This document shows, piece after piece, positions 1,166 to 25,804 of a stretch of DNA of 64,000 nucleotides. The position numbers were made by a program, and so were the translations under genes. The notes beneath the pieces were generated by a model. That model was given only the letters and a program-made list of their open reading frames with translations, was not told the DNA's origin and searched no databases. Origin of the DNA: a virus; the IMG/VR virus record IMGVR_UViG_3300042564_002819, positions 266,025-330,024 of that record; one strand, written 5' to 3'. Position 1 is the stretch's first letter. Every line of letters begins with the position of its first letter.

Positions 1166-2299
1166 ATGCGTTTAGATTTAGATATAAAATTAGATTATAA
1201 AGACGTTCTTATACGTCCCAAAAGAAGTACATTAGGAAGTCGTGCAGAAGTAGATCTAATACGTAACTTTACGTTTAGAAACTATGTTCCTGGATTTCCT
1301 GAAAACACAGAAGATTATCATTATCGTGGTATTCCTATTATGGCAGCCAACATGGACGGTGTTGGCACATTTGAAGTAGCAGATGCTCTTGCGAAGCAAG
1401 GACTGTTTACATGCCTTGTAAAAACTTACACAGAAAAAGAATTAGTCGATTATTTTAATCAAGAACCGGGCGGCATTTATAGAACAGATCATGTTGCTAT
1501 GAGTATCGGAGTAAGCAATGCAGATTACGAAAAGTTCTGTAAAGTTTATTTAAGTCTCGGTGCTAGATTAAAATACCTCTGTATCGATGTTGCTAATGGA
1601 TATACAGAAACTTTTGTTAATCATGTAAGAAACATTCGCGAACGCTATCCGGAAATAGTTATTATTGCCGGTAACGTAGTAACAGGCGAAATGACGGAGG
1701 AACTTATTCTTGCTGGAGCAGATATCGTTAAAGTTGGCATTGGTCCTGGTAGTGTTTGTACTACTCGTATACAGACTGGTGTGGGTTATCCGCAATTATC
1801 AGCAGTTATCGAATGTGCAGATGCTGCTCATGGACTCGGTGGTCATATTATTGCTGACGGGGGTTGCACTTGTCCTGGCGACGTAGCCAAAGCATTTGCA
1901 GCCGGTGCTGACTTTGTAATGCTAGGTGGAATGTTAGCCGGGCATGATCAAGGCGGCGGCAACGTTATACACAAGGCTTTCAAGACTGGCGAAATACACT
2001 ATGATAACGGCGACGAAATACTTGATATAAAAAAGTTTGTGCAGTTTTATGGTATGAGTTCAAAAGCTGCTAACGATAAACACTTCGGTGGCTTAAAAGA
2101 TTACAGAGCATCCGAAGGTAGAGAAGTTCTTGTACCTTACAGAGGTGATGTACAAGTAACTGTGCAAGAAATACTAGGCGGGCTGCGTAGTACTTGCACG
2201 TATGCAGGTGCTAAGACATTAAAACAACTTAGCAAATGCACAACCTTTGTACGTGTAACACAGCAATTTAATGCTGTTTATGCGAACAATGGTAAATAA
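1166..2299 (+). CDS. guaC: IMPDH/GMP reductase family enzyme (GMP reductase-like, no CBS insert)
   Basis: 377 aa; catalytic loop [20 protein letters not shown] and GGxLAG glycine motifs of the IMPDH/GuaC TIM barrel. Confidence 0.8.
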
Positions 2300-2354
2300 A
2301 AGTGGAACGCCAAAACGGGTTCCGAAAGATCTTGCTTAAATAAGGAGATATAAA

Positions 2355-2789
2355 ATGACAAGACTTACAACATTAGACCTACCCTCATTTCATCGTGCCA
2401 CAGTTGGCTTTGACAGAATTTTTAATGAAATTGAACGTCAATTTGCCAATTCTCCAAATACCAACAACTATCCTCCATACAACGTTGCTGAAATCAACGA
2501 AAACGAATGGATGATCAGTATTGCAGTTGCTGGCTTTGGAATGGACAATCTCGATATTGTACACGATAAAAATATCTTGACTGTTGAGGGCACATCTCCA
2601 AAAGGAGACGAGGAAGTAAAGTATCTACACAAGGGACTCGGAAGACGCAGTTTCCGTAGAAGCTTTACACTAGCCGACTTTGTTGAAGTTGCAAACGCAA
2701 CCCTTGAGCTCGGTATGCTAAATATTCATCTAAAGCGTAATGTTCCAGAAGAACTACAGCCGAAGAGAATTGAAATTATTGCTAACTAA
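2355..2789 (+). CDS. small heat shock protein (Hsp20/alpha-crystallin)
   Basis: IbpA-like blocks PPYNV..NEW.ISIAVAGF and FRRSFTLADFVEV within a 144-aa protein. Confidence 0.8.
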   Translation: MTRLTTLDLPSFHRATVGFDRIFNEIERQFANSPNTNNYPPYNVAEINENEWMISIAVAGFGMDNLDIVHDKNILTVEGTSPKGDEEVKYLHKGLGRRSFRRSFTLADFVEVANATLELGMLNIHLKRNVPEELQPKRIEIIAN

Positions 2790-2795
2790 TGTCTA

Positions 2796-2824
2796 ATTGT
2801 TAGAGGGTGCAACACCCTCTAACA
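2796..2824 (+). terminator. perfect 13-bp inverted repeat (TTGTTAGAGGGTG CAA CACCCTCTAACAA), putative terminator/operator
   Basis: palindrome directly after the Hsp20 stop; no U tract. Confidence 0.35.
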
Positions 2825-2842
2825 AACCTTGGAGAAAAATAA

Positions 2843-3175
2843 ATGACAAATGATGTATATAAACAAAAAGAACAACTCGACATTGCTAAAGTTAATGAAA
2901 AAATAAAAGTTGATTATAAAGAACCGTCGAGATTTAAGGTTGTGTTTTTAAATGACGACCATACTCCAATGGAATTTGTAGTTATGTTATTAGTCAAACT
3001 TTTTAAACACTCTGAAGAAACTGCACACGCTCTTACTATGAAAATTCACGAAGAAGGTTCGGGAGTTGTTGGAGTTTACAGTTATGAAATTGCCGAAGAA
3101 AAGGCCATAGAAACAATTTCTGTTTGCAGAGATAACGGGTTTCCTTTAAGAATTAAGTTAGAGGAAGAAGCTTGA
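2843..3175 (+). CDS. clpS: ClpS protease adaptor
   Basis: VVFLNDDHTPMEFVVMLLVKLF..ALTMKIHEEG matches the ClpS core (ILVNDDYTPMEFV). Confidence 0.85.
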   Translation: MTNDVYKQKEQLDIAKVNEKIKVDYKEPSRFKVVFLNDDHTPMEFVVMLLVKLFKHSEETAHALTMKIHEEGSGVVGVYSYEIAEEKAIETISVCRDNGFPLRIKLEEEA

Positions 3176-3699
3176 AGTTAAAAGAACTAACATACGAAGT
3201 TCATCAACGTGCTGAACGTACCGAATTTGCACGAAATCTTCTTAAAGGGCTTTCTCCAGAAGAATACCATCGTTATCTGTATAATCAGTATATGATATAT
3301 TCTATACTTGAAGATGCTGCCAAGCATGTATTACCTGAACTAAAAGAAATCTATAGAGCAGAACGCATTTATGCAGATATCAGAGAACTCGAACGAGAAT
3401 ACGCTATAGGCACCACACCCAGTCTCTTAATGCCAGTTGTGCGTGAATATGAAAAGCATATTATAAATCTAAATCGAGAAGGTATACTTGCTCACATTTA
3501 CGTTCGTCATTTTGGCGATATGTATGGCGGCCAGATGATTAAGAAACGTAATCCAGGATCAGGAACTATGTATGATTTTGATAACGTTGAAGAACTTAAA
3601 ACTAAGGTTAGATCAATGCTGTCAGATGACATGGCAGAAGAAGCAAATCGTTGTTTTGAGTTTGCTATTCAATTGTTTACGGAATTAACCAATGAGTGA
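3172..3699 (+). CDS. ho1: heme oxygenase
   Basis: TTG start; YEVHQRAERTEFARNLLKG and HIYVRHFGDMYGGQMI resemble the HO family heme-binding helices. Confidence 0.7.
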   Translation: MKLKELTYEVHQRAERTEFARNLLKGLSPEEYHRYLYNQYMIYSILEDAAKHVLPELKEIYRAERIYADIRELEREYAIGTTPSLLMPVVREYEKHIINLNREGILAHIYVRHFGDMYGGQMIKKRNPGSGTMYDFDNVEELKTKVRSMLSDDMAEEANRCFEFAIQLFTELTNE

Positions 3700-4372
3700 A
3701 GTTTGGAATCAGTTAGTCAATCTTCAAGATAAAATTATATCTAAACTCAACTCGTGTGCCACAGAAGTATACGAGCCTGGCATGGATAGATTTAATCAGC
3801 CGGGCTGGGTGAATAGAGTTTGGCAAAACGACACAATTCGTCGTGCCCATGTTGATGTGGTTGATGCAAGATCAACTAAAGGACTGTGGATGATGCATGT
3901 TTGTTTATTTCCACATTGCACAGATACTGCACCAATTTACGGGCTAGACATAATAGCAGGTAAAAATAAAGTTACAGGATTTTTTCACGATTTTAGTCCA
4001 ACTGTAGCACCTAATCATACAATGATTATAAACTTTGGAAAAGTTGTATCTGAGTATGACTGGAAAAAAGAAAGAGAGCTTCCTGACTGGGCTAAAGCTA
4101 TTTTTAGTCAGTATATGGTTGCTGTTGGTAATGTAAATACCAACGAAGAATTAGAATCGTTAATAGACTTAAGTCTTAACAATCTTGATGACTGGCTTGG
4201 ATATTACAGATACACAAAATGCACTTACGAAGAAGGCGCGGCAGCACAAAATCGTTATGCATATTATCAAAAACAAAATCCGCATACACCAAGAACAATG
4301 ACAGCTCTTGGACTAAACGAAGAAGATGTACAAGTTTTTGTACAGGAATGCTTGTTTCCTGATATAAAATAA
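3692..4372 (+). CDS. pebS: ferredoxin-dependent bilin reductase (PebS/PebA-like)
   Basis: 226 aa; RRAHVDVVDARSTKGLWMMH and C-terminal NRYAYYQKQNPHT match FDBR motifs; adjacent to ho1 as in cyanomyophages. Confidence 0.6.
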   Translation: MSEVWNQLVNLQDKIISKLNSCATEVYEPGMDRFNQPGWVNRVWQNDTIRRAHVDVVDARSTKGLWMMHVCLFPHCTDTAPIYGLDIIAGKNKVTGFFHDFSPTVAPNHTMIINFGKVVSEYDWKKERELPDWAKAIFSQYMVAVGNVNTNEELESLIDLSLNNLDDWLGYYRYTKCTYEEGAAAQNRYAYYQKQNPHTPRTMTALGLNEEDVQVFVQECLFPDIK

Positions 4373-4427
4373 TATTAGCATACATAGAAATGACTCCGTT
4401 AGTTAAATAATAATGGAGGGCATTCCA

Positions 4428-4883
4428 ATGAAAAAAATAATAATAATCGCATGTTTGATTGCGAATCCGGCCCTAGCGGATATCGTGTTTGAATTTAATT
4501 CCCCTGCTTTTAGCGGCAATGGATATAGTACACACGTTCTTACTATTGAACAGTTAGAGCAACAACGCAGAGATAAAATTAAAGCAGACGAGCAAGCAGA
4601 ACTTGATCGCATTGAGCGTGAATATCGTAACAGTAACGCTTATAAATTTCAAAACAACTTAGAAAGTCGTATCTACGCACAACTGTCAAAACAAATAGCA
4701 GATGCACTATTTGGCGAAGGCGGCACCATTACAATAGGAGAATGGGCAGAAGCAGAAACTCCATTCGGCGATAATATTCGTTGGATGAGAGATGTTGATG
4801 ACAGAATTTATATAGAGGTATACGACTCAAATGGAGAGTTAGTATCTAGCTTTGATGTACCAGTAGGGGAGTTTGCGTTCTAA
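4428..4883 (+). CDS. csgF: CsgF-like curli assembly component
   Basis: signal peptide, then DIVFEFNSPAFSGNG (compare CsgF TMTFQFRNPNFGGNP); GGAGGG RBS 7 nt upstream. Confidence 0.65.
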   Translation: MKKIIIIACLIANPALADIVFEFNSPAFSGNGYSTHVLTIEQLEQQRRDKIKADEQAELDRIEREYRNSNAYKFQNNLESRIYAQLSKQIADALFGEGGTITIGEWAEAETPFGDNIRWMRDVDDRIYIEVYDSNGELVSSFDVPVGEFAF

Positions 4884-5656
4884 TGAAAATACTATTATCT
4901 ATATTGCTGGCCACATCTATATTAGCAAGTTGTTCATCTACAGTGAATAGAATTGAAAGTGAACCGCCGCAGGTTGTGATCACAGACGAAGAATACCTAA
5001 ATGCACTTCCTCCTCTAGCAGGACCTATGGTAGCAGCAGTGTATCAATTTGAAGATAAAACAGGGCAGCGTAAACCTAGTGAACGCCTTGCAAATATCAG
5101 CACAGCCGTTACACAAGGTGCAAGTGAATACGTAATTAAAGCACTACGCGAAGTAGGCAACGGTACATGGTTTAAAGTTGTTGAACGTGTGGGATTAGAA
5201 AACTTGTCTAAAGAGCGTCAGATTATTAGACAGACCAGAGAAAGTGTAGGAGACGAAACTCCTCTAGCACCAATGATGTTTGCAGGACTAATTGTAGAAG
5301 GTGCTATAGTTGGTTATGATTCAAATACTCTAACAGGCGGAGCGGGGGCACGCTATTTAGGTATAGGACCGAGCACTCAATACACAGAAGATGTTATAAC
5401 TGTAACAATGCGTTGTGTAAGTGTGCAGACCGGTGAAATATTAACCAGCACGGCGGTAACAAAAACAGTTGTAAGCACTAGCACAGATATGGGGGTATTT
5501 CGCTTTATTGAGTTAGGCACACAAGCAGTTGAATTAGAAGTGGGCAACAGTCAAAACGAAAGCGTAAATCATGCTGTAAGATTGGCAATTCAAGCAGCAA
5601 TAGTAGAAATGATAAAGGAAGGTGCGGATAACGGTATCTGGACCATCCAACAATAA
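4883..5656 (+). CDS. csgG: CsgG-like curli secretion channel lipoprotein
   Basis: lipobox LASC; long collinear identity with E. coli CsgG (AVYQFEDKTGQRKP; KERQIIR; IVEGAIVGYDSNTLTGGAGARYLGIGPSTQY; VQTGEILTST; GVFRFIE). Confidence 0.9.
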   Translation: MKILLSILLATSILASCSSTVNRIESEPPQVVITDEEYLNALPPLAGPMVAAVYQFEDKTGQRKPSERLANISTAVTQGASEYVIKALREVGNGTWFKVVERVGLENLSKERQIIRQTRESVGDETPLAPMMFAGLIVEGAIVGYDSNTLTGGAGARYLGIGPSTQYTEDVITVTMRCVSVQTGEILTSTAVTKTVVSTSTDMGVFRFIELGTQAVELEVGNSQNESVNHAVRLAIQAAIVEMIKEGADNGIWTIQQ

Positions 5657-5695
5657 ACAGAGTAAGATAAAACTTACCAATACGAGGGCAAAAAA

Positions 5696-6529
5696 ATGAA
5701 AAAGATTCTAACCACAGTGGCTTTCTCTATGTTGGCAACAACAGCGATAGCAAGTGAAGTATATATTGATCAAGCAGGTGGTGCATTGAATGTAGATGTG
5801 CTACAAGAAAATGGACTTAACCGTGTTAATAGAGAAGACAACCCTTTTGATATTGAAGGAAATGACATTGATATTAACATAACTCAAAACGGCGACGGCA
5901 ACGAAGCAGATTTTGAATTAGAATCAGGGGCAAATAATACTACACTGGTCTACAGTGCCGCTGGAGATTATAACACTATAATTGGACAAATATTTGGCGG
6001 AATTTCAAATACATTTGATACTACTATTACTGGTAGTTCGAACGCTATTACATACTGTAGAGATTATACAAACAGTAATTGTAATGGTGTAATTGTTAAC
6101 AATACCACAACTACAGTAGAACTAATAGGTAGTAATAACCAGTTGAACTTTGCATTAGACAGTGCAGATAGCACTAATAATATAAAAATAGGACAAACTA
6201 CTCCTAGCGATCAAAACGTGTTCAATCTTACACAAATTTCAACAGCAGGCTATGACTCTGTAACTGCTAACATTGATGGAGATTCAAACACTACCGATAT
6301 TACTCAAAATACCACAGGTGGAAACAATGTAGTAATTATGGACATCATTGGTGGAAACAACGTATTAGCATTTACTCAAACTGGAGCAGCAGGTTATAAC
6401 AATATCACAATGGACATAACCGGAAACTCCAATGCATTTACGTTTGATCAACAGACTGCTATAGGATATACTTATATCACTGGTGTAGTTGCTGGTAATT
6501 CAAATACTGTGAATATATTACAGAACTAA
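5696..6529 (+). CDS. secreted curlin-repeat-like protein
   Basis: signal peptide; N/T/Q-rich with degenerate repeats GNSNAFTFDQQTAIGY, GGNNVLAFTQTGAAGYNN, GDSNTTDITQNTTGGNN (S/G-N-x5-Q-x-G). Confidence 0.5.
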   Translation: MKKILTTVAFSMLATTAIASEVYIDQAGGALNVDVLQENGLNRVNREDNPFDIEGNDIDINITQNGDGNEADFELESGANNTTLVYSAAGDYNTIIGQIFGGISNTFDTTITGSSNAITYCRDYTNSNCNGVIVNNTTTTVELIGSNNQLNFALDSADSTNNIKIGQTTPSDQNVFNLTQISTAGYDSVTANIDGDSNTTDITQNTTGGNNVVIMDIIGGNNVLAFTQTGAAGYNNITMDITGNSNAFTFDQQTAIGYTYITGVVAGNSNTVNILQN

Positions 6530-6530
6530 T

Positions 6531-7625
6531 ATGTGGCGTTGGTTTGGAATAATGGTTATTATACCTAGCATAGCATTTGCTGAAGTGGGCAGTATCACAG
6601 AGTTTGATGGCAATCCTGCAGGTGCTGTTCGTAGCAAAGAAGAACTTGTTTTTGAACAAGCAGGGTTCGGTGTGGAAATGCTAGACAAGTTGATTACTGC
6701 TCAAACTAATTTAGAAATTACATTTGAAGACGATTCAAAAGTAAGAATTACTGAACAAAGTGAATTAGTGATAGACGATTTTGTATATGACCCAAACACC
6801 AGCACAGGAAGTATGAGTATGAAAGTTGCCCTCGGCACTGTACAAATGACCAGCGGTAAACTAGCTAAAACTAGCCGAGATCGTGTAAGTATAAACACGC
6901 CTACTGCTAGCATAACAGTTAGAGGTACTGATTTTTCAATGACTGTGGACGAGTTAGGTCGTAGTCTGATAATTCTGCTTCCAAGTTGCCCTGACGAAAC
7001 ACTCAACGAAGACGAATGTCCAGTGGGTGCTATTACAGTTAGTAACGCAGCAGGTAGTGTATCTCTTAACGAAGCATACCAAGGAACTATGGTAAGCAGT
7101 ATGGCAATGTTACCAAGCGATCCTCGTAGATTATTGTTACAAAGATCAAATATTAACAATGAATTAATCATTGTTCCTCCTAGTGAATTTCCAAACGGAT
7201 TTGCTACTGAAGACGAAGAAGAAGAAATTAGAACAGGCCTTGATGTAGACTTTTTAGAATATCAAGAACTTAGCGTAAATTTATTAAACGACGATCTTCT
7301 TAACTTTTCACAATTAGACGTAAACAGGCTTAATAACAAATACTTGGATAACTTTTTAGATTTCACACCAGGCTTAGACGACAACGAACTAGATGAAGAA
7401 GAAAATACAATTTTACCAAACATACACAAATATCCATGGATGACATGGATTGCAAACGAAGAAAGCATATTTATAGACAGTGATCGCCCTCCTCACATTG
7501 CTGTTCTAAATACCAGGGCAGACACACACGGAACTTACAGTCTTACACAAGACGACTACGTTGCAAACGTTCAAATACAAGACGGTGGCGACAACATCAA
7601 TATTAAGGTGGTACAAAAACAATGA
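6531..7625 (+). CDS. secreted protein with FecR-like beta domain
   Basis: signal peptide; segment VRSKEELVFEQAGFGVEMLDKLITAQTNLEITFEDDSKVRITEQSELVID resembles PF04773-type strands; acidic C-terminus. Confidence 0.3.
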   Translation: MWRWFGIMVIIPSIAFAEVGSITEFDGNPAGAVRSKEELVFEQAGFGVEMLDKLITAQTNLEITFEDDSKVRITEQSELVIDDFVYDPNTSTGSMSMKVALGTVQMTSGKLAKTSRDRVSINTPTASITVRGTDFSMTVDELGRSLIILLPSCPDETLNEDECPVGAITVSNAAGSVSLNEAYQGTMVSSMAMLPSDPRRLLLQRSNINNELIIVPPSEFPNGFATEDEEEEIRTGLDVDFLEYQELSVNLLNDDLLNFSQLDVNRLNNKYLDNFLDFTPGLDDNELDEEENTILPNIHKYPWMTWIANEESIFIDSDRPPHIAVLNTRADTHGTYSLTQDDYVANVQIQDGGDNINIKVVQKQ

Positions 7626-9271
7626 AAACAATAATAAAAATAATCGCAACATTTTTTGTACTAACATTTGCCACAGCAGCAAACGCTGCAATTACAGATG
7701 GTAAATTTGGTATAGCACAAATATTTGACGTTCAATATTATTGGAATGGAACAACGCTTAATGCAAGCAACTTTATTGCTCCATACGATAAGGACTTCAA
7801 CACAGTAACAGCAACCTCCGGGCAGTATTTTGAATTTTTTGATTCAACAGTGCAACCGGGAAAACAAGGTCTAAGATTAATGAATTCCAACGGAACACTG
7901 GATCGTATTATTCATGACTACGGAGACATTACAGCACTAGGCTCCGGCGCCATATTTTATATCGGCAGCGGATTCTTTGGTAATGTTATCTCGACAGCAC
8001 AAGGTTATAACTATGGATCTAGTGCTTCGTTTACAAATATGGATACAAGTGTAGATTCAAGTGATTTAACAAGTTACACTTTCGCAAGTTCGCAGCCGCT
8101 AGCAGCAGGACAAAGTGCTGCTCCAGCAGGTCCAACTTATACTAACCTAAACAGTACTATAACAACTGTTTATCCAACTAGTACTAATACACCTGCAGGT
8201 GAAGAAGCCATTAAAGCAGTCGACGGCAGCGGCAGCACCAAGTATCTTAACTTTGACAGAGAAACAGCAGGTTTCACTGTAAAATTAAGTGCAGGTCGTG
8301 TGGTAAAAGCATTGCAATTCACAACAGCAAACGATTTTGCATTGCGTGATCCAACTAAGTTTACACTTTATGGTTCAAACGATGGTGTTACTTGGACAGC
8401 AATTGTACAAGATCAACCTATTACACTGCCTAGCGGACGTGGTGTAACAATAGATCCTGTAGTTATTACAAACACAACAGCATATGTTTATTACTTTATT
8501 ACATTCCCTGAATTAAAGTCAACAACAGATCCTAGTTGTGCTAATCCAACTACACAACAACAGATACTTGCTTGCGACAGTGTTCAGATTGCAGAAGTAA
8601 TATTCTTGATGGAAGACGGCGATACCACTACCAGCACTGACCAAGGTTCAGGAAGTGTAAGCAACCCAGGTCCACAAGTACAAGTACCGTTAACCAGTAT
8701 CACAAGTGTACAACAAGCACAAGTTGCAACAGCATTTGCTATTACAAGTGGCAACAATGTTGACTTTACTATTATAGGTAGTTCAAACACAGTTGACATT
8801 GAACAACTAAGCAATGGTAACTATGTATTACTTTACTTAAACGGTAGTTCAAACACACTGGATATTTCACAGAGTGGATCAAATGCTGATAGAAACTTTG
8901 CTGACATTAACATTGTAGGCAGCAACAACACTATGACATTTGAACAAAGTGGTAACAGCAACAAAACAGCATTTTTAGATATTGACGGTAGTTACGGAAC
9001 ATACAACATTACTCAAACAGGAACTGGACTACATCATTTAGATCTTACCAACGTCGGCGATGATGCTACAGTTACAGTATTGCAAGAAGGTGCAGGTAAT
9101 CATCAAGCAATAGTAGAACTAGAAAATGCAGGCGGAAACTGGAACTTCAATCTTACACAGAGTGGAGATACAAGTCAGCTGTATAGTCTTCCAAATAACC
9201 TCAGTGACAATACTGTAGTAAATGGCGTTTGTACTAGCGGCACTTGCAATATGACAGTTAATCAACAATAA
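7622..9271 (+). CDS. secreted curlin-repeat protein with central discoidin (F5/8 type C)-like domain
   Basis: signal peptide; C-terminal repeats SNTVDIEQLSNGN, SNTLDISQSGSNA, NNTMTFEQSGNSNK, TVTVLQEGAGNHQA, NFNLTQSGDTSQ; middle AIKAVDGSGSTKYLNF..KFTLYGSNDGVTWTAI is discoidin-like. Confidence 0.55.
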   Translation: MKTIIKIIATFFVLTFATAANAAITDGKFGIAQIFDVQYYWNGTTLNASNFIAPYDKDFNTVTATSGQYFEFFDSTVQPGKQGLRLMNSNGTLDRIIHDYGDITALGSGAIFYIGSGFFGNVISTAQGYNYGSSASFTNMDTSVDSSDLTSYTFASSQPLAAGQSAAPAGPTYTNLNSTITTVYPTSTNTPAGEEAIKAVDGSGSTKYLNFDRETAGFTVKLSAGRVVKALQFTTANDFALRDPTKFTLYGSNDGVTWTAIVQDQPITLPSGRGVTIDPVVITNTTAYVYYFITFPELKSTTDPSCANPTTQQQILACDSVQIAEVIFLMEDGDTTTSTDQGSGSVSNPGPQVQVPLTSITSVQQAQVATAFAITSGNNVDFTIIGSSNTVDIEQLSNGNYVLLYLNGSSNTLDISQSGSNADRNFADINIVGSNNTMTFEQSGNSNKTAFLDIDGSYGTYNITQTGTGLHHLDLTNVGDDATVTVLQEGAGNHQAIVELENAGGNWNFNLTQSGDTSQLYSLPNNLSDNTVVNGVCTSGTCNMTVNQQ

Positions 9272-9287
9272 ATTTGTATACCACCTT

Positions 9288-9320
9288 AATGATAGGGCCT
9301 ACGGGCCCTATCATTTTAAA
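9288..9320 (+). terminator. rho-independent terminator
   Basis: AATGATAGGGCC-TACG-GGCCCTATCATT followed by TTTAAAT. Confidence 0.6.
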
Positions 9321-9344
9321 TAAATACGTTAGGGGGCAATAACA

Positions 9345-9683
9345 ATGGATTTAGTATACGGAATAGCATTGAGTTTTCATCTAGGAATGAACGAGGACTA
9401 CAATAATTTGCATCCACATATTCGTTTACAAAACGATGACTTTATTGCAGGTGCTTACTACAATAGCGAAGATGCATTAAGTGCTTATGCTGGGATTGAG
9501 CTAGGCAGCGGAAAATGGAATCACGAATTCGGTTTAGTATCTGGATACAATGAAAGCACTGTAATTCCTTTTGTTAGATCCACTTATGAATTAAATGATA
9601 ATACAATAGGTTATATATCGCCAGGGTTCGAAGATAACAACATTGGTGTAGTATTAGGCATAGAATTTCAAATTAAAAAATGA
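9345..9683 (+). CDS. hypothetical small protein (possible outer-membrane beta-strand protein)
   Basis: alternating aromatic/hydrophobic pattern, C-terminal GIEFQIKK. Confidence 0.3.
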   Translation: MDLVYGIALSFHLGMNEDYNNLHPHIRLQNDDFIAGAYYNSEDALSAYAGIELGSGKWNHEFGLVSGYNESTVIPFVRSTYELNDNTIGYISPGFEDNNIGVVLGIEFQIKK

Positions 9684-9919
9684 AGTGGCTGATCGATCTA
9701 TTTAAAGGAAAAGAAGATGAAGTACACAGTGGATCATCGGACCTCCATATTAGAATTGCTGAAATCCAGACCCGCATCGCCGCTGTTAGAAGCCGCAATG
9801 GCTGGGACAAAGAACCCTATAAAAATACTAAAATACAATCCCAACCAGTGGTGGCCCAGGAAAAACCTAAAGTAGGCAGCGAAGATTTAAAAGCTAAACT
9901 ACTTGCTATAAAAAAATAA
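9680..9919 (+). CDS. hypothetical protein
   Basis: 79-aa ORF. Confidence 0.3.
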   Translation: MKWLIDLFKGKEDEVHSGSSDLHIRIAEIQTRIAAVRSRNGWDKEPYKNTKIQSQPVVAQEKPKVGSEDLKAKLLAIKK

Positions 9920-9926
9920 ATACAGT

Positions 9927-11966
9927 ATGAAAAAATTACTGTTATCGCCTGTTTGGAGCATTTTAGTATTAGTATTGTTGGCTTGGCTACAGTTTGCTAA
10001 TCCTAGTTTTTTAGAAAGTCTACAGCTACGTTACTTTGACCAACTTATAGTAAATCAAGAACCTGTAGCTAACAACGTTTACACAGTAAACATAGACGAA
10101 GCAAGTTTAAAGGCAAACGGACAATGGCCGTGGCCAAGAGGCGAATACGCCAAACTCATCGAAGAACTATATGCACGTGGTGCAGGATTAGTTGTGTTCA
10201 ACGTTCTAATGAGTGAAACAGATCGTGCAGGACAAGATGGCGTATTATCTACCACAATGAGCAACTATCCTGTTATAGTTACAATGTTGGGTACAGAGGA
10301 AAACAAAAATGAACCAATCAATCCTGGTGCTAGTATTATTAATAGCGACTACATCGATCTTATTCCTTCCGTGCCTGGCATCACAGCAAACGTGTCAGAT
10401 ATTGAACGTGCGGCTGTTGGATCAGGAATTGTTAACACTTTTCCAGAAATAGACGGTGTTACAAGACGTGCTCCACTAATACTAGAAAGCGGTGGAATAC
10501 TGTATCCTAACGTTACTATGGAAGTGCTTCGTGTTCTTGCCGGCGATCCAAGTTTCCAAATTAAACTGTCACCAATTGGTATAGACAAACTTCGTATTCC
10601 ACAGTATGGTGTATTACAAACAGATGAAATCGGCAGAGTTTGGTTAGATTGGAGTCAAAATTTTTCCAGTTACAGTGCTGCTGAGTTGCCCGATGATTTT
10701 GCAGGCGGTATAGTTTTTGTAGGACCAACAGCAGCCGGCATTACACAACCAATTGCAACAGCCGCAGGCGGTATTTGGCCGCATGAACTACAAGCTATAA
10801 TGCTAGGTACAGTGTTTAATCAAAGCAATATAAAACGTCCAGCATGGGCAACAGGTGCTGAATTGCTAGGATTTGTAATTTCTGGCATAGCTTTAATAAT
10901 AGCAGCACGTTGGACCTATGCGGGCATAGGAATATTTTTAATACTAGTTGGAACATCAATCGGTGGCAGCATCTATATGTTCTCTGCTTATAACTTCTTA
11001 CTAGACGGTTTTGTTCCGGCAGCATTCTTGTTGTTGGTAGGATTAGTAAGATATACTGTTAAGTTTGTAAGTGAGTTCTTACAAAAGCAAAAGATCAAAA
11101 AACAATTTGGTGGTTATGTGTCGCCTAAGATTGTTGATTTACTGGCTAAAGATCCGAGTGTAATAGAACGTGGAGTAAAGAAAAACATCTCTATTACTAT
11201 GACTGATCTGCGTGGCTTTACTCCTCTTGGAGAAAGTTACGGTGCTGATGTTGAAGGATTGCGTCAAATCATGAATGACTACATGGAAGCAATTACACAG
11301 CCAGTATTACGCAACGAAGGCACTATTATCAAATATATCGGTGATGCAAGTTTACATATAAACGGTGCACCATTTGATCAAGATAATCATGAATGTGTTG
11401 CGGTAAAAACTGCAATTGAAATGATAGATGCTGTAGAGGTGTTTAATGAAGAACTTAAAGCAAAAGGTAAGCCACCCGTTGGCATGGGTGCTGGTATCAA
11501 TACTGGTCCTACAGTTATTGGTAATATTGGCAGTTATAAGCGTTATGGTTATGACGTTTTAGGTGATAGTGTAAGCACAGCCGCACGTCTTGAAGGACAA
11601 ACCAAGCCCTATGGTGTTTTATTAATACTAGGACCAAAAACTGCCGAAGTAGCACGTCATTTCTATCACGTTGTAGAATTAGATCTATTAGCAGTCAAAG
11701 GTAAAACCGAAGCACTTCCTATTTACACAGTAATTTGGAGAGAAACACCCAACACTGAGTTTTGGCATCATCATGAAACATTCTTATCAGAATACAGATT
11801 AGCAAATTGGAAATCAGCTCTGGAACAAATTCAGTGGTTAAAAATTAATGGTCCTGTCACACTAGTCAAGTACTACGAGATGATGGAAGAACGTATTGCT
11901 GATCTATCTAAGAAAAAAATACAGCCCGGAAAATGGGACGGAGTATTCAGAGCTACAAGTAAATAA
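9927..11966 (+). CDS. CHASE2-sensor class III adenylate/guanylate cyclase
   Basis: N-terminal TM, then periplasmic CHASE2-like segment (NGQWPWPR); three further TM helices; cyclase core ITMTDLRGFT, KYIGDASL, GINTGPTVIGNIGS, GYDVLGDSVSTAARLEG. Confidence 0.75.
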   Translation: MKKLLLSPVWSILVLVLLAWLQFANPSFLESLQLRYFDQLIVNQEPVANNVYTVNIDEASLKANGQWPWPRGEYAKLIEELYARGAGLVVFNVLMSETDRAGQDGVLSTTMSNYPVIVTMLGTEENKNEPINPGASIINSDYIDLIPSVPGITANVSDIERAAVGSGIVNTFPEIDGVTRRAPLILESGGILYPNVTMEVLRVLAGDPSFQIKLSPIGIDKLRIPQYGVLQTDEIGRVWLDWSQNFSSYSAAELPDDFAGGIVFVGPTAAGITQPIATAAGGIWPHELQAIMLGTVFNQSNIKRPAWATGAELLGFVISGIALIIAARWTYAGIGIFLILVGTSIGGSIYMFSAYNFLLDGFVPAAFLLLVGLVRYTVKFVSEFLQKQKIKKQFGGYVSPKIVDLLAKDPSVIERGVKKNISITMTDLRGFTPLGESYGADVEGLRQIMNDYMEAITQPVLRNEGTIIKYIGDASLHINGAPFDQDNHECVAVKTAIEMIDAVEVFNEELKAKGKPPVGMGAGINTGPTVIGNIGSYKRYGYDVLGDSVSTAARLEGQTKPYGVLLILGPKTAEVARHFYHVVELDLLAVKGKTEALPIYTVIWRETPNTEFWHHHETFLSEYRLANWKSALEQIQWLKINGPVTLVKYYEMMEERIADLSKKKIQPGKWDGVFRATSK

Positions 11967-11996
11967 GGAGCCAAAAGGCTCCTTATTTTTATTAAT
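11963..11996. terminator. bidirectional rho-independent terminator
   Basis: AATAAGGAGCC-AAAA-GGCTCCTTATT then TTTTATT; lies between converging genes. Confidence 0.75.
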
Positions 11997-12007
11997 GTAA
12001 AGTGTTA

Positions 12008-12343
12008 TTATGAACGACTCATATAAGCACTAGAACCAAAGAATGATGCTACTACACCAGCTTGTGCAATGTAGAACATACTTAAAATGTTGTCTAATGC
12101 TGCTAGTCTGTCAATACCGATAAAAGGTAAAAATAGTAAAACTGTAAATACAACCATACTAAGCATAGCAACCCATGCCATTCTTCTAAGTTGATCTTCT
12201 TTTTGATCTTTGTTTTCTAAGTCAACAATGCGTTCTGCTTTAGCAAGTTCTTCGTCGGAAACTACGCCATCGCCGTCGGTGTCAAACTTGTTAAATTGAC
12301 TGTCTTCTTGTAGTGTCTTTGGTGTTCTTGGTGTTCTTGCCAT
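12008..12343 (-). CDS. small membrane protein with EF-hand-like Ca-binding loop
   Basis: DTDGDGVVSDEE matches DxDxDGxxSxEE; two C-terminal TM helices. Confidence 0.5.
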   Translation of the reverse strand: MARTPRTPKTLQEDSQFNKFDTDGDGVVSDEELAKAERIVDLENKDQKEDQLRRMAWVAMLSMVVFTVLLFLPFIGIDRLAALDNILSMFYIAQAGVVASFFGSSAYMSRS

Positions 12344-12360
12344 TTCTGGATCTCCCTCTA

Positions 12361-12705
12361 TTATTTTTTTTTATCTTCTCTGCCGGTGCTGTTAAAAACT
12401 TGGCTACGGCTTTGATACTTGTTAATCAATTCGTCGAGTTCGTCTTTTTTGTCATCTGGAAGCGAATCTATGTGTTGTCGATATTCTAAAACCATTGTTA
12501 GCTTACTGTTTAAACGAATCATGTCGTTATCTAACATACGTACACGATCCACTAGTTTAATCAGCGTCCCCATTGTTTCACCAATCACAGGATCAATTTC
12601 TTCAGTTACCCATTTCCATATAAAGAAAACAAAGTAGCCCATTCCCATTGCTGCAATGATCGGAAATCCAAAGTCTTTAATAGCCTGTGCAATATCAAAT
12701 TCCAT
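12361..12705 (-). CDS. small single-pass membrane protein (paralog A)
   Basis: N-terminal TM DFGFPIIAAMGMGYFVFFIWKW then charged coiled-coil tail. Confidence 0.4.
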   Translation of the reverse strand: MEFDIAQAIKDFGFPIIAAMGMGYFVFFIWKWVTEEIDPVIGETMGTLIKLVDRVRMLDNDMIRLNSKLTMVLEYRQHIDSLPDDKKDELDELINKYQSRSQVFNSTGREDKKK

Positions 12706-12983
12706 TAGTCTCTCCTTGCATCGTTTTTGCCTTCGTTAGCAGCAATACGATCTATATTAGGTTTAACATTTAACGCATAACTTAATAGTGCATCTATCTT
12801 AACTAAATCATTATTCATAGTTTGAACACGATTATCTAACTGTGCAATAATATTTTTTAGAGTTGTAACAGATCCTGTTACTCCTGCTAGAATAAACTTC
12901 AATGTTAAGAAAACAAAACCGCCGGCTGCTAATGCACCGGCAATTGGAAACCCTACTTCGCTTACTAATTGCAAAAAATCCAT
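12705..12983 (-). CDS. small single-pass membrane protein (paralog B)
   Basis: N-terminal TM EVGFPIAGALAAGGFVFLTLKF; same architecture as 12361..12705. Confidence 0.4.
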   Translation of the reverse strand: MDFLQLVSEVGFPIAGALAAGGFVFLTLKFILAGVTGSVTTLKNIIAQLDNRVQTMNNDLVKIDALLSYALNVKPNIDRIAANEGKNDARRD

Positions 12984-13035
12984 TAAAACGCCCTCACGTT
13001 TTGCATAGTATTTAGCATAATGCGATTGTTTTTTA

Positions 13036-13066
13036 TTGACAAAATGCTTAAATATACTACTATATT
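13036..13066 (+). promoter_or_regulatory. sigma70-like promoter
   Basis: TTGACA at 13036, TACTAT/TATATT -10 candidates, AAGGAGA RBS, ATG at 13081. Confidence 0.5.
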
Positions 13067-13080
13067 ACAAAGGAGACTGC

Positions 13081-14214
13081 ATGAACAATTTTATAGAAGA
13101 TTTTATTAAAAAAAATACATTTCACAGACCGACTTTAGTGTTAGATATAAATGAAGTGGAAAAAAACTTCTATAATCTTAAACGTGGGATGCCCGATGCT
13201 CACATACACTATGCTGTTAAAAGCAATCCGCATCCTGAAATACTAAAATGCTTAGTGCAACAAGGTTGCAAGTTTGATGCAGCATCGATGGGAGAAATAG
13301 ATGCTTGTTTAGAAGCAGGTGCAAAGCCCGAACATATCAGTTTTGGCAATACTGTAAAGCGTTGGCAAGACATCAAATATGCACACTCTATAGGTATTGA
13401 CCTTTTTGCAGCAGATGCAAGTGAAGAACTTGAAAAGATTGCAAATTACGCACCTAACTCTCGCGTGTTTATTCGTGTATTGATTGGGCAAACTGAAGCA
13501 GAATGGCCGTTATCACGAAAGTTTGGTTGCGATCCCCAAATGGTTCTTGAGCTAATGGGATATGCTACAGACCTAGGTCTTAAGCCAGTTGGTATTAGTT
13601 GGCACATTGGTTCACAAACAAAACATCCTGAAATGTGGTTCGACACACTAGAAATGATGGCTAACCTTTGGGATGAAGCCTGCGGTTTTGGATACGATTT
13701 ATCGTTGGTAAACATCGGCGGCGGATTTCCTGCATACTACGGTGTTGATATAACTCCGCCAGAAGAATACGGTAGAAAATTAATGGATCGTGTTCGTAAG
13801 CAATTTCCAGGTGCAGACTACATTATGGTCGAACCGGGTCGCGGATTAGTAGGCAGTGCTGGTGCTATTGCTGCTGAAGTGTTATTGGTTAGCAAGAAGT
13901 CATCCTACGAAACAGTGCGTTGGGTTTATTTAAACATAGGAAGATTTAGTGGATTGGCTGAAACCGAAGGCGAAGCTATTAAATATCAATTTTCTATACC
14001 AGGTAAAGAAAACTCTACTACAGGACCATGTATTCTTGCAGGTCCTACTTGCGATAGTGCAGATGTACTATATGAAAAGAACAAGGTTCATTTGCCAGTT
14101 GACCTTTGCAGTGGCGATCGATTTATTATACGAAACTGCGGGGCTTACACCAGCACCTACAGCACTATTGCGTTTAACGGGTTTCCGCCGTTAGCTGTTG
14201 TAGTTTGCAAATGA
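13081..14214 (+). CDS. PLP-dependent ornithine/arginine/DAP decarboxylase (alanine-racemase fold, group IV)
   Basis: HYAVKSNPHPEILKCLVQQGCKFDAASMGEI (PLP lysine region), GGGFP, EPGR, C-terminal CGAYT motif. Confidence 0.8.
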   Translation: MNNFIEDFIKKNTFHRPTLVLDINEVEKNFYNLKRGMPDAHIHYAVKSNPHPEILKCLVQQGCKFDAASMGEIDACLEAGAKPEHISFGNTVKRWQDIKYAHSIGIDLFAADASEELEKIANYAPNSRVFIRVLIGQTEAEWPLSRKFGCDPQMVLELMGYATDLGLKPVGISWHIGSQTKHPEMWFDTLEMMANLWDEACGFGYDLSLVNIGGGFPAYYGVDITPPEEYGRKLMDRVRKQFPGADYIMVEPGRGLVGSAGAIAAEVLLVSKKSSYETVRWVYLNIGRFSGLAETEGEAIKYQFSIPGKENSTTGPCILAGPTCDSADVLYEKNKVHLPVDLCSGDRFIIRNCGAYTSTYSTIAFNGFPPLAVVVCK

Positions 14215-14216
14215 GG

Positions 14217-14244
14217 TTGACAATTTTTACAATTTATGTATAGT
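14217..14244 (+). promoter_or_regulatory. sigma70-like promoter P1 upstream of a long leader
   Basis: TTGACA-N16-TATAGT. Confidence 0.45.
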
Positions 14245-14308
14245 AAAGAGAATAGCAATGATTGTCGCTGTTGGCCCGTGGCGATACATTGCTATAAATC
14301 TATAAGTC

Positions 14309-14338
14309 TTGACAATGAACCGAGTAAGATGATATTAT
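14309..14338 (+). promoter_or_regulatory. sigma70-like promoter P2 (extended -10)
   Basis: TTGACA-N18-TGATATTAT. Confidence 0.45.
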
Positions 14339-14430
14339 CTGCGAAAGTCCGGCGAGAGCTTAAATTTGTCAAGGGTCACAAGCACTAGTCCAACAGTGTG
14401 TGGCTAACGGGCCGCCAATAGGAGGAAAGT

Positions 14431-14622
14431 TTGGTAAATAATAACATGAAAACGTATCCAGCTAATGAAATATTTCAAGACATTGAAAATGACAAAAACA
14501 ACGTCTTGATGAATATTCCTCCTGAAATTGCAGAAGAATTAGGATGGGTACCGGGAGACGTCTTGAAGATCGAAATATTAGAAAGTGGCGGCGTTTCTAT
14601 TTCCAAGGTAAAAAATGGCTAA
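14431..14622 (+). CDS. AbrB/MazE-like small DNA-binding protein
   Basis: 63 aa; [31 protein letters not shown] resembles a swapped-hairpin motif. Confidence 0.35.
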
Positions 14623-14830
14623 AGAAGATGTTATTGAAGTAGAAGGCGAAATTGTAGATGTTTTGCCTAACCAAACTTTTCGTGTAGAACTCGAAAACGG
14701 TCACAGGGTAACTTGTTACACTGGCGGAAAGATGAGACAATTTAAAATTAGACTCGTACAGGGCGACAAAGTTAAAGTAGAAATGACACCATACGATCTA
14801 CAAAAAGGTCGAATTATGTTTAGGATCTAA
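14615..14830 (+). CDS. infA: translation initiation factor IF-1
   Basis: 71 aa; [64 protein letters not shown] is near-colinear with bacterial IF-1. Confidence 0.85.
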
Positions 14831-22727: not shown

Positions 22728-22814
22728 GGTCGGTGGCCCGGATGGTAAGGGGATGGACTGCAACTCCATAGCACTGCACGACAGTAATCAGTTCGATTCT
22801 GATACCGACCTCCA
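22728..22814 (+). tRNA. tRNA-like, class II-type (long variable arm), apparent anticodon GCA
   Basis: perfect acceptor GGTCGGT/ACCGACC, T arm ATCAG-TTCGATT-CTGAT, anticodon stem ATGGA/TCCAT with loop CTGCAAC, 17-nt variable arm; unusual for Cys. Confidence 0.4.
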
Positions 22815-22818
22815 CAAT

Positions 22819-22895
22819 TGGTGCCGTAACTCAGTTGGTCAGAGTGCATCGCTCATAACGATGAAGTCGGTGGTTCAAATCCACCCGGCACCACC
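22819..22895 (+). tRNA. tRNA with CAT anticodon (Met or Ile2/lysidine type)
   Basis: GGTGCCG..CGGCACC acceptor, anticodon loop CTCATAA, TTCAAAT T loop, CCA encoded. Confidence 0.8.
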
Positions 22896-22900
22896 AAAAT

Positions 22901-22977
22901 TGGGACATTGGACTTCTTGGCGAAGGTCGCCGCCCTTTCAAGGCGGAGAAACGGGTTCGAAACCCGTATGTCCTACC
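22901..22977 (+). tRNA. tRNA-Glu(TTC)
   Basis: cloverleaf by eye; anticodon stem CCGCC/GGCGG, loop CTTTCAA. Confidence 0.7.
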
Positions 22978-23093
22978 AAAATAGATCAAGCCTAGTCGAT
23001 CTCGAAAATCACTAGGCCCGCTCCTGAGGATCAAGCCATCGGAAGGTTCGAGACTTCCTTTGCAGGGTCGTCACCTGCCAGGAGTAACATACA

Positions 23094-23178
23094 TGGGAGA
23101 GACGCCTCAAGGTGAGGCAGTGGATTGTAAATCCATCGCGGCAACGCACGGACGGGTTCGATTCCCTCCTCTCCCACC
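23094..23178 (+). tRNA. tRNA-Tyr(GTA)
   Basis: GGGAGAG..CTCTCCC acceptor; loop TTGTAAA; long variable arm as in bacterial Tyr. Confidence 0.75.
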
Positions 23179-23184
23179 AAAATT

Positions 23185-23260
23185 AGGGTCTCTGGTATAG
23201 CTGGTGCGTACGGCTGCCTGAAGAGCAGTAGGACACGGTTCGATTCCGTGGGGACCCGCC
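23185..23260 (+). tRNA. tRNA-Phe(GAA)
   Basis: anticodon loop CTGAAGA, T arm CACGG-TTCGATT-CCGTG. Confidence 0.7.
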
Positions 23261-23469
23261 AAGAATTATACTACCATAAACACGAAAGAAAATAAAATGA
23301 AACTTGATCCGGAAGAAAGAATCTTCTTGACTGAAGAAGAATTGAAGCGTATACATGATGCTTGTGCTAATCCACCGGAACCAACAGACTATGTAAGACG
23401 CTATATTAACGCATATAGGAGAAAAAATGAAACGAAAACGTAACGCAGAAGATTATGACAAACGCAACA

Positions 23470-23545
23470 TGGACCGGTAGCTGAGGTGGTTTTAGCACCC
23501 GACTTTTAATCGGAGTACGTGGGTTCGAGTCCCACCCGGTCCACC
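23470..23545 (+). tRNA. tRNA-Lys(TTT)
   Basis: perfect acceptor GGACCGG/CCGGTCC; loop CTTTTAA. Confidence 0.8.
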
Positions 23546-23665
23546 ATAGTTTTGATGATACACTGACGCCGCGTGGTTACGGCTATACAACTAGGCTTAT
23601 CGCAACCTAATAACCATAGAGGGTTGAGTCGAGGTTGAGCAGTGTATCTTTTAAACTATGAATAT

Positions 23666-23741
23666 TGTTCCATAGCACAACTGGTTAGTGCAGGCGACTG
23701 ATAATCGTCAGATCTGAGTTCGAGTCTCGGTGGAACAACCA
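23666..23741 (+). tRNA. tRNA-Ile(GAT)
   Basis: acceptor TGTTCCA/TGGAACA; loop CTGATAA. Confidence 0.75.
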
Positions 23742-23953
23742 AAATTAGTAGGAAGACAGCCAGTGGAAGAACAGGAATATTACGCACCGTGGGAATGGCA
23801 GCCGATCGAATTCATGCCTAACGGATGTAATGATGTTGTTGTAAGAGACCGTGAAGGCAACACTCGAGAATTGTGTTCATGCGATTACTGGTGGTTGTCA
23901 GCAGAAGATAAAAAGATTTACACATCTTTTAGATTTGTGTAATTTTAACATAA

Positions 23954-24029
23954 TGCCGTGCTTGGTGTAAGGGTAGCATACCGCACTGTGACTGCGTTGG
24001 AATAGGTTCAAATCCTATACACGGTACCA
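23954..24029 (+). tRNA. tRNA-His(GTG)
   Basis: anticodon arm CCTGCC-like CCGCA-CTGTGAC-TGCGT; TTCAAAT T loop; acceptor register and G-1 uncertain. Confidence 0.6.
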
Positions 24030-24041
24030 ATACAAATTTAA

Positions 24042-24635: not shown

Positions 24636-24691
24636 GTGATATTCCTTGTATAACTAAAACGTATTTATAAAACTTAAAATAAGAGAGATAA

Positions 24692-25123: not shown

Positions 25124-25192
25124 GGCCAAAGGCTTAGATCACATCAAGTTAAACTGTATTATTTCTATATACTGTCATTTTATAAATATTTT

Positions 25193-25705: not shown

Positions 25706-25718
25706 AATTTAGTTTAAT

Positions 25719-25795: not shown

Positions 25796-25804
25796 AAATA
25801 CTAG

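Follow-up and report, generated by a model that had tools for sequence, protein, structure and literature searches.

A CHASE2-sensor nucleotidyl cyclase as the probable signalling arm of a curli gene module in marine T4-like phages

Overview

We analyzed a 64,000-nucleotide (nt) stretch of viral DNA (the window; positions 266,025 to 330,024 of the IMG/VR record IMGVR_UViG_3300042564_002819) that encodes a 679-amino-acid (aa) membrane protein in which a CHASE2 sensor domain is joined to a class III nucleotidyl cyclase domain. The gene closes a run of genes for curli-type secretion. Judging from sequence, we consider it probable (at about 0.6) that the protein is an inner-membrane receptor adenylate cyclase that serves as the signalling arm of the type VIII (curli) module of marine T4-like pelagimyophages. 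This reading builds on the domain architecture, the predicted topology, the retained catalytic residues, and the synteny and co-occurrence of the genes, from which we infer enzyme activity, its product, a contact between FecR and CHASE2, a signal, and a target for cyclic AMP (cAMP).

The cyclase is a real feature of these genomes and has mostly been described already as part of the pelagimyophage curli cluster. Added here are a reading of CHASE2 and FecR as a pair, a set of coupled active-site changes seen only in phages, an invariant pair of small membrane proteins (p92 and p114) and a weak link to a gene for an EF-hand protein.

The curli module and its conservation

The genes from position 4413 to 11966 lie on one strand, with spacings of -4 to +73 nt (Table 1). 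The order CsgF-CsgG-curlin-FecR-curlin-cyclase is kept in Methylophilales phage Melnitz, in Pelagibacter phage HTVC008M and in IMG/VR loci, and a 329-kb contig encoding an 80%-identical cyclase has the same module order. A cyclase gene is present in all 50 viral loci that have a FecR gene and at least 6 kb of room downstream of it. The window has every element of the published pelagiphage module (PMC9599517), with CsgF, CsgG, a curlin-repeat protein, FecR and the cyclase in conserved order on a phage genome. A preliminary description of this DNA had proposed a link between the cyclase and the neighbouring curli genes, and the conserved order and the 50 FecR loci bear this out. CsgG of the window shares 48-53% identity with its Melnitz and HTVC008M counterparts. 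In a search of 50,697 isolate phage records, CsgG was identified in four records of Melnitz, two of HTVC008M and one 1.5-kb Salmonella fragment. Megablast of the module region and of 20 kb elsewhere in the window against the isolate phages returned no match, and relatives of the module in these phages were detected at the protein level only. The T4-type late promoter TATAAATA shows no enrichment and was not found near the module.

Table 1. Coordinates of the curli module, the cyclase and the convergent genes in the window (a dot marks features not assigned to a strand).
Feature	Position	Strand	Evidence
CsgF-like protein, signal peptide; first plus-strand gene of the module	4413..4883	+	Pfam CsgF, E 5.5e-12; N-terminal hydrophobic segment
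CsgG-like outer-membrane lipoprotein channel, lipobox LASC	4883..5656	+	Pfam CsgG, E 1.1e-51
Secreted curlin-repeat protein, 277 aa	5696..6529	+	Pfam Curlin_rpt, 22.9 bits (cut-off 20.7)
Periplasmic FecR-domain protein, signal peptide, no transmembrane (TM) anchor	6531..7625	+	Pfam FecR, E 3.9e-10; phrog_37870
Secreted protein, 549 aa, discoidin-like region and curlin repeats	7622..9271	+	Pfam Curlin_rpt, 33 bits
112-aa protein between curlin gene and cyclase	9345..9683	+	phrog_3600 (PagP-like), E 3e-9; synteny
79-aa protein, 4-nt overlap with the 112-aa gene	9680..9919	+	Conserved in closest relatives
CHASE2-sensor class III nucleotidyl cyclase, 679 aa	9927..11966	+	Pfam, hydropathy, alignment
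Cyclase: TM1 (~aa 4-27)		+	Hydropathy
Cyclase: CHASE2 domain (aa 16-320)	9972..10886	+	Pfam
Cyclase: TM2-4 (~aa 308-380)		+	Hydropathy
Cyclase: catalytic domain (aa 418-595)	11178..11711	+	Pfam
Cyclase: conserved C-terminal extension (aa 601-679)		+	
Codon of Ser550, in place of the canonical transition-state Asn	11574..11576	+	Alignment
Two-way intrinsic-terminator-like hairpin, common to the convergent transcription units	11961..11988	.	Folding
EF-hand membrane protein, 111 aa, at least one TM helix (aa 59-77); last gene of the minus-strand unit	12008..12343	-	phrog_27150
p114, 114 aa, single TM helix, long helix, paralogue of p92	12361..12705	-	BLASTP, PHROG, hydropathy
p92, 92 aa, single TM helix, long helix, paralogue of p114	12705..12983	-	BLASTP, PHROG, hydropathy, AlphaFold
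Divergent sigma-70-like promoter matches (consensus only), between p92 and decarboxylase gene	13014..13063	.	

Curli genes in pelagimyophages were first noted by Zaragoza-Solas et al. (2020; PMC7029224) and were also reported by Buchholz et al. (2022; PMC9004378); the cyclase is mentioned in neither. The order 'HK(s), CsgF, CsgG, CsgA/B, FecR, CsgA/B, AC' was given for pelagiphages of both morphotypes by Wittmers et al. (2022; PMC9599517), who treat FecR as an iron regulator, describe an alphaproteobacterial affinity, and report expression of the module in ocean metatranscriptomes and viral curli genes at all 65 global ocean virome stations examined. CHASE2 is mentioned in none of these three papers. 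Gene content and gene order of the window (CsgF, CsgG, curlin-repeat, FecR, curlin-repeat, cyclase) are those of the published module, from which the window differs in having two extra small genes (112 and 79 aa) ahead of the cyclase. In the papers we consulted, we found neither a recurring cassette of FecR and CHASE2 cyclase, nor the bordering p92/p114 pair, nor the loose EF-hand link.

Architecture and distribution of the cyclase

Both domains of the protein score above the curated Pfam cut-offs, CHASE2 (PF05226) with 130.4 bits (E 1.1e-37; cut-off 26.3) and Guanylate_cyc (PF00211) with 60.2 bits (E 2.5e-16; cut-off 21.9). Hydropathy peaks correspond to one N-terminal helix and three more helices just before the catalytic domain. 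The 679-aa open reading frame with a CHASE2-like domain and four TM helices is thus as first described. One helix followed by three places CHASE2 outside the cytoplasm and the catalytic domain inside it, a predicted topology that is usual for CHASE2 proteins. The catalytic domain matches solved cyclases in the PDB (best E 2e-26). The GQWPWPR motif of the CHASE2 region and the linker KQxIKKQF that precedes the catalytic domain are both conserved.

The gene is less unusual for a phage than was first supposed. More than 6,000 metagenomic clusters match the cyclase at E<=1e-10, the family has its own PHROG (phrog_35576), homologues are annotated in Melnitz and HTVC008M, and the gene is discussed by Wittmers et al. 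(PMC9599517). The window cyclase shares 35-39% identity with its counterparts in HTVC008M and Melnitz (39% with Melnitz). In the isolate phage records, matches that span most of the protein are confined to the four Melnitz and two HTVC008M records, and three other records match just part of the catalytic domain.

One relative, P0057, matches the window cyclase unevenly along its length, with identities of 80% (CHASE2), 58% (catalytic domain) and 25% (C-terminal extension), a mosaic that points to intragenic recombination between phage lineages. Several cyclase-bearing contigs binned as Chitinophagaceae, Bacteroidetes, Rhizobiaceae or Rickettsiales (L007, L008, L009, L012 and L080) are apparently mis-binned phage contigs. 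On L007-L009 and L080, genes of the phage module (p92/p114, CsgG/CsgF or FecR) lie beside the cyclase; L012, which is 2.2 kb long, has the cyclase only and is placed inside the viral clade of the tree.

A remodelled active site

Alignment to CyaC and Cya2 places the key residues of the cyclase at D427, K469, D473, R539, D543, S550 and R554. The metal-binding residues D427 and D473 are invariant in 123/123 close and 141/141 distant homologues, and Lys469 and both arginines (R539 and R554) in all homologues examined. The substrate-specifying pair, Lys469 and Asp543, is of the adenylate type, which predicts ATP rather than GTP as substrate and supports the initial call of a class III membrane-sensor cyclase of the type that makes cAMP. 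The catalytic core had been described as complete. This holds for D427, K469, D473, R539, D543 and R554, and fails at the transition-state pair of Asn and Arg, where Arg554 is present and Asn is replaced by Ser550.

The replacement is not a peculiarity of the window. Position 550 is Ser in 60/60 members of the Asp543 clade and Asn in 88/88 other homologues. We compared 77 loci from genome_contigs with 73 phage-linked copies: all 77 of the former have Ser or Thr at 543 and Asn at 550, and the phage-linked copies have either Asp543 with Ser550 (60/73) or Ser/Thr with Asn (13/73), with no mixed state. The combination of Asp543 and Ser550 is therefore confined to phage copies, and it occurs in just six of 141 aligned 50%-identity representatives. 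Ten further catalytic-domain differences beyond 543 and 550 are fixed in the Asp/Ser group, including D468I (beside the substrate Lys), I475S and A477H (just past the second metal Asp) and L551T. The invariance of the catalytic Asp, Lys and Arg residues despite an overall identity of 35-88% makes these phage-only changes look like selected remodelling and not decay. We also used a neighbour-joining tree to ask whether the Asp/Ser site had a single origin. The clade is not cleanly monophyletic in this tree, which intragenic mosaicism makes unreliable on that point. In a mammalian cyclase, the change of Asn to Ser, studied by Yan et al. in 1997, is reported to lower kcat strongly, a point in favour of an attenuated enzyme.

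Class IIIb is partly defined by replacement of the substrate-binding Asp by Thr (PMC2613629). Given Ser or Thr at position 543, the bacterial relatives appear class IIIb-like; the window cyclase, with Asp543, lacks this replacement, and its clade has left the class IIIb pattern. A useful comparison for position 550 is Ma1120 of Mycobacterium avium, an active adenylate cyclase with Lys, Asp, Ala for Asn, and Arg, in which restoring Asn destroyed activity (PMC4215837). Like the window cyclase, it combines the Lys/Asp pair and a retained Arg with a small residue at the position of the transition-state Asn; it differs in that the residue is Ala and not Ser, and in being a catalytic model with no reported link to CHASE2 or to phages (PMC4215837). 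Ser550 thus makes the enzyme less canonical, not less likely to be functional, and the suggestion that absence of the catalytic Asn would mark a pseudo-cyclase was too strict.

Pairing with FecR in phages and bacteria

The 75 closest bacterial homologues are mostly from Alphaproteobacteria and are ~30% identical to the window cyclase over the full length; identity to Alphaproteobacteria is ~28-33%, with the C-terminal extension included. The same full-length architecture, often with FecR nearby, is found in CyaD1, CyaD2 and CyaK of Sinorhizobium meliloti (PMC5498481) and in a Campylobacterota cluster (PMC9239204). A FecR-like open reading frame lies within 3 kb of the cyclase, and mostly within 1 kb, in 19/54 bacterial homologues with enough flanking sequence. 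Published cases also connect FecR with CHASE2: in Campylobacterota a CHASE2 cyclase is clustered with genes for FecR, tetratricopeptide repeat (TPR) proteins and a phosphodiesterase (PMC9239204), and in S. meliloti a FecR-domain protein is a target of the CHASE2-cyclase/Clr pathway (PMC5498481). In Burkholderia, a LysM-FecR protein occurs with a CHASE2 histidine kinase (PMC5192318). That operon resembles the window in placing a FecR gene beside a CHASE2 membrane sensor, and affects biofilm; unlike the window, it has a histidine kinase and response regulator as output and no secretion genes (PMC5192318). By gene neighbourhood, then, FecR protein and CHASE2 cyclase form a recurring bacterial cassette. 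With its signal peptide and lack of a membrane anchor, the FecR protein of the phage fits a periplasmic partner of CHASE2 better than an iron regulator. We propose that it is the sensory partner of the CHASE2 domain.

The bacterial and phage settings differ in other respects. Bacterial CHASE2 cyclases have Lys, Ser/Thr, Asn and Arg (class IIIb-type) where the window has Lys, Asp, Ser and Arg, and their neighbours are HlyD, TolC-like, RTX, metallo-beta-lactamase (MBL)-fold and Slam/TPR proteins instead of CsgG and CsgF. In loci L010-L086 we identified genes for HlyD (34 loci), TolC-like proteins (13) and calcium-binding RTX repeat proteins (35), as well as Slam/TPR proteins; the MBL-fold hydrolase beside the cyclase in 10 loci could be a phosphodiesterase. 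No CsgG or CsgF was identified near the bacterial homologues by tblastn, and the combination of curli genes and cyclase occurs only in the phage-linked loci of our sample. In both settings the FecR-CHASE2 cassette adjoins exporters of extracellular repeat proteins.

The p92/p114 pair

The genes for p92 and p114 share one base and encode paralogues (BLASTP E 3e-14) that both match phrog_18771, a family without an assigned function, at 1e-29 to 1e-30. Each has one predicted TM helix, in line with the preliminary description of two paralogous single-TM proteins. The pair was traced through 160 loci from two IMG/VR scans (queried with p92 of the window and of HTVC008M). It borders the module in 160/160 of these viral loci, with p114 directly after p92 in 158/160. 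Three layouts were identified: the pair is upstream of the module on the same strand in 43 loci, converges with the cyclase (the layout of the window) in 39 and is downstream on the same strand in 5. Where a locus extends at least 9 kb to each side of p92, the cyclase is present in 27/27 cases and CsgG in 26/27. In the isolate phage records, p92 was found in the four Melnitz and two HTVC008M records only. The suspicion that the two proteins are partners of the module is therefore well placed.

In the 80 loci that best match the window p92, p92 is 80-97% identical and the cyclase 35-88%, a comparison biased by the choice of loci as best p92 matches. A comparison with Melnitz, which does not depend on that selection, gives 82% identity for p92 and 39% for the cyclase. 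By these identities, no other protein of the module is as conserved as p92. Its AlphaFold model has one long helix (aa 3-71) and a short C-terminal helix (pLDDT 76). The acidic N-termini of p92 and p114, and a Lys just past the hydrophobic stretch, suggest an N-out, C-in orientation.

In Melnitz and HTVC008M, p92 and p114 are immediately upstream of csgF, in contrast to their downstream and convergent position in the window, where the EF-hand gene is joined into the p92/p114 unit. The 'histidine kinase(s)' of Wittmers et al. precede csgF, the position that p92 and p114 occupy in Melnitz and HTVC008M, and may be the same genes; the 'HK' genes of HTVC008M are not listed in the supplement of that paper (PMC9599517). 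If they are the same genes, the kinase label is unsupported. We considered a histidine kinase and rejected it: the proteins are 92 and 114 aa long, p92 contains no His, no HisKA or HATPase match was obtained for 19 members even at E<=1, a PDB profile search yielded coiled-coil noise only, and the AlphaFold model shows one long helix. A match of p92 to a holin family (phrog_4898, E 0.0055) is not significant, and p114 has no such match. Four metagenomic proteins that read as p92 fused to p114 (P0271-P0274, 153-181 aa) were not used as evidence of interaction; each comes from a single contig with a frameshift-like junction and may reflect misassembly rather than natural fusion.

The terminator-like hairpin and the EF-hand gene

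Three tightly packed minus-strand genes (p92, p114 and EF-hand) converge on a hairpin with a perfect 12-bp stem that overlaps the stop codon of the cyclase and has a U-rich run after it on either strand. Folding of the two strands yields -18.5 and -18.7 kcal/mol (z -5.4 and -5.7, respectively), values matched by 0/200 shuffles. These properties agree with the bidirectional terminator predicted at the outset.

The last of the three genes encodes a small protein with a canonical EF-hand loop, as had been noted (DTDGDGVVSDEE at 12248-12283 on the minus strand; ligand residues D21, D23, D25 and E32, with G26). The loop is kept in 16/16 distinct homologues aligned, and its EF-hand_5 score in Pfam is barely above the cut-off (26.3 bits; cut-off 25.9). 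The 111 aa contain one loop instead of paired EF-hands, and pairing would need dimerisation. The specific coupling to the cyclase that had been envisaged is not supported: the gene directly adjoins the module only in close relatives of the window and a few other lineages. Elsewhere, two to three kb of unrelated small genes separate it from the module, and in Melnitz and HTVC008M, which both have phrog_27150, a 2-kb tape-measure-like gene separates it from the cyclase. In the window, we found no tape-measure or hub homologue near the module. In loci that contain the whole module and extend at least 3 kb past it at each end, the EF-hand gene is within ~3 kb of the module in 8/12 cases, and it lies beyond the cyclase 3' end in 2/38 loci with 5 kb there. 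On these counts the linkage is real but loose, and the position of the gene could reflect the edge of a variable region. Given this looseness, we do not count the EF-hand protein as a demonstrated partner.

A proposed mechanism

In our preferred reading, Sec export in an infected cell would deliver to the envelope the phage CsgG and CsgF, which would form an outer-membrane channel, two secreted curlin-repeat proteins and a periplasmic FecR-domain protein. The cyclase would insert into the inner membrane with its CHASE2 domain facing the periplasm, where CHASE2 and the FecR protein may jointly read an envelope or periplasmic cue, such as the export state of curlin or something entering via the pore. 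The signal would run via TM2-4 and the conserved linker to a dimeric catalytic domain, which would convert ATP (Lys469/Asp543) to cAMP, and cAMP would then act on a target. The membrane-anchored, long-helix p92/p114 pair may be part of the same apparatus.

Several points weigh against this reading. A search with the single sequence of E. coli CRP, a weak negative, identified no CRP-like cAMP receptor in the window, Melnitz or HTVC008M, so that the target of cAMP is probably a host protein or not CRP-like; a search of the literature on cAMP receptors in Pelagibacter turned up nothing useful. Physical contact between FecR, CHASE2 and p92/p114 is a supposition drawn from gene neighbourhood. N550S and eleven further fixed catalytic-domain differences from all bacterial relatives mean that activity or product could differ from cAMP. 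In addition, the closest bacterial homologues adjoin genes for type I secretion and RTX proteins, and thus provide no bacterial precedent for the curli link. A more extended version, in which the CsgG/CsgF pore, FecR, the CHASE2 cyclase and p92/p114 make up an envelope-spanning phage sensory pathway whose remodelled site (Asp543, Ser550, His477 and others) has changed product or control relative to every bacterial CHASE2 cyclase, seems to us unlikely as a whole.

Alternative explanations

None of the rival explanations rises above weak support. Two concern the active site. The protein could be an attenuated or pseudo-cyclase that acts as a receptor or scaffold, as N550S and the changes near the catalytic motifs (D468I, I475S, A477H, L551T and others) might suggest. 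We consider this quite unlikely: Lys469, Arg539, Arg554 and the two metal-binding aspartates are unchanged in 60/60 clade members at 35-88% overall identity, which points to purifying selection on catalysis, and Ma1120 is active without the Asn and inactivated by its return (PMC4215837). Just as unlikely, in our estimation, is a neofunctionalised cyclase in which the remodelled site has changed the product or the regulation (e.g., by loss of a class IIIb-type response to CO2/bicarbonate). In its favour are the strict coupling of S/T543D and N550S (viral copies: 59 with both, 11 with neither, 0 mixed), the absence of the combination from 77 bacterial loci and the partial definition of class IIIb by Thr for Asp (PMC2613629). 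However, Lys with Asp is the ordinary ATP signature, and the specificity residues of pyrimidine cyclases differ from those of the window (PMC11224242).

The other rivals take the neighbouring genes as their starting point. A calcium-coupled second-messenger unit of cyclase, EF-hand protein and the two mini-membrane proteins would account for the close packing of the three minus-strand genes, their convergence on the cyclase at a shared hairpin in the window, the conservation of the EF-hand loop in all homologues and the proximity of its gene to the module in 8/12 loci, in several layouts. It is nonetheless improbable, somewhat more so than the active-site alternatives, given that direct adjacency is restricted to few lineages, with tape-measure-like or unrelated small genes intervening elsewhere, and that only 2/38 loci have the EF-hand gene past the cyclase 3' end; the gene may simply mark the edge of a variable region. 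Less probable again is a lysis-timing device, in which pore, holin-like p92/p114 and cyclase set the moment of lysis. A role of the CsgGF pore in lysis timing was proposed by Buchholz et al. (PMC9004378), both small proteins have a single TM helix, and p92 has the weak holin match cited above; that match falls short of significance and has no counterpart in p114, we saw no endolysin or spanin adjoining the module (for endolysin, the surroundings of the module were not searched systematically), and the module carries genuine curlin-repeat cargo genes. Subversion of Pycsar, CBASS or Thoeris immunity by cyclic-nucleotide flooding or mimicry, in keeping with the anti-defence role floated in the preliminary description, is very improbable. 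Its sole evidence is a match of the catalytic domain to PycC models in PADLOC (best E 1.2e-11, 42 bits), which is weaker than that to Guanylate_cyc (60 bits) and reflects generic class III homology. PADLOC gave no match to the neighbours of the cyclase, and PycC as best model together with an adjacent cyclic-nucleotide-binding effector was not found. The periplasmic sensor and the constant company of secretion genes also argue against defence, as do the bacterial homologues, which occur in type I secretion, RTX and FecR contexts and not in defence islands.

Other genes of the module and the window

The 277-aa curlin-repeat protein has an N-terminus that resembles a signal peptide by eye, with no segment above the hydropathy threshold. 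The 549-aa protein has weak matches to the CsgB and CsgA models of NCBIfam. Its N-terminal half scores 26.9 bits against F5_F8_type_C, under the cut-off of 28.2; were this discoidin-like match true, the protein would bear a carbohydrate-binding head on an amyloid-type repeat. The 112-aa protein matches the C-terminal part of the PagP-like PHROG and has neither a signal peptide nor space for one. Many viral loci, not all, have its gene in the same place, after the curlin gene and before the cyclase. No family match was identified for the 79-aa protein in Pfam or PHROG searches.

The window is phage DNA: it matches IMG/VR contigs and has 30 tRNA genes, a T4 Rnl1-like RNA ligase, genes for NAD salvage and further accessory genes typical of phages. 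Over the module region it is identical to a 136.6-kb JGI contig. The tRNA genes form two plus-strand arrays (22728-30874 and 55105-63777) that cover most amino acids; ARAGORN reports abnormal anticodon loops in two of them (58591-58666 and 63704-63777). Immediately upstream of csgF, genes for heme oxygenase and a ferredoxin-dependent bilin reductase are side by side (3172-4372), a pair better known from cyanophages. They are preceded by genes for ClpS, Hsp20 and an IMP dehydrogenase (IMPDH)/GMP-reductase-like protein (1166-3175). Past the module, on the plus strand (13036-14830), are genes for a pyridoxal phosphate (PLP)-dependent decarboxylase of the ornithine/diaminopimelate (DAP) type, a MazE/AbrB-like protein of 63 aa and a homologue of translation initiation factor IF-1. 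A 1019-aa protein (37330-40389) combines KOW motifs with a match to sigma-70 region 1.1, an odd pairing for a phage protein. An accessory run (40405-53573) encodes an ADP-ribosylglycohydrolase, the T4 Rnl1-like RNA ligase, a cytidylyltransferase-like/Nudix fusion, nicotinamide phosphoribosyltransferase and an SPFH/Band 7 protein.

Implications

The hosts of these phages number among the ocean's most abundant bacteria and lack curli genes of their own. Pairing of a CHASE2 sensor with FecR would change the view of FecR from an iron regulator to a sensor partner, and points to the curli module as a signalling as well as a secretion device. The coupled, phage-only active-site changes provide a defined set of mutants, and p92 and p114 add two further components to the module. 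If the unlikely envelope-spanning version is true, a SAR11- or OM43-type host would read an external or periplasmic cue, for example fibre assembly, neighbouring cells or superinfection, and a cyclic-nucleotide signal would set host physiology or the timing of lysis.

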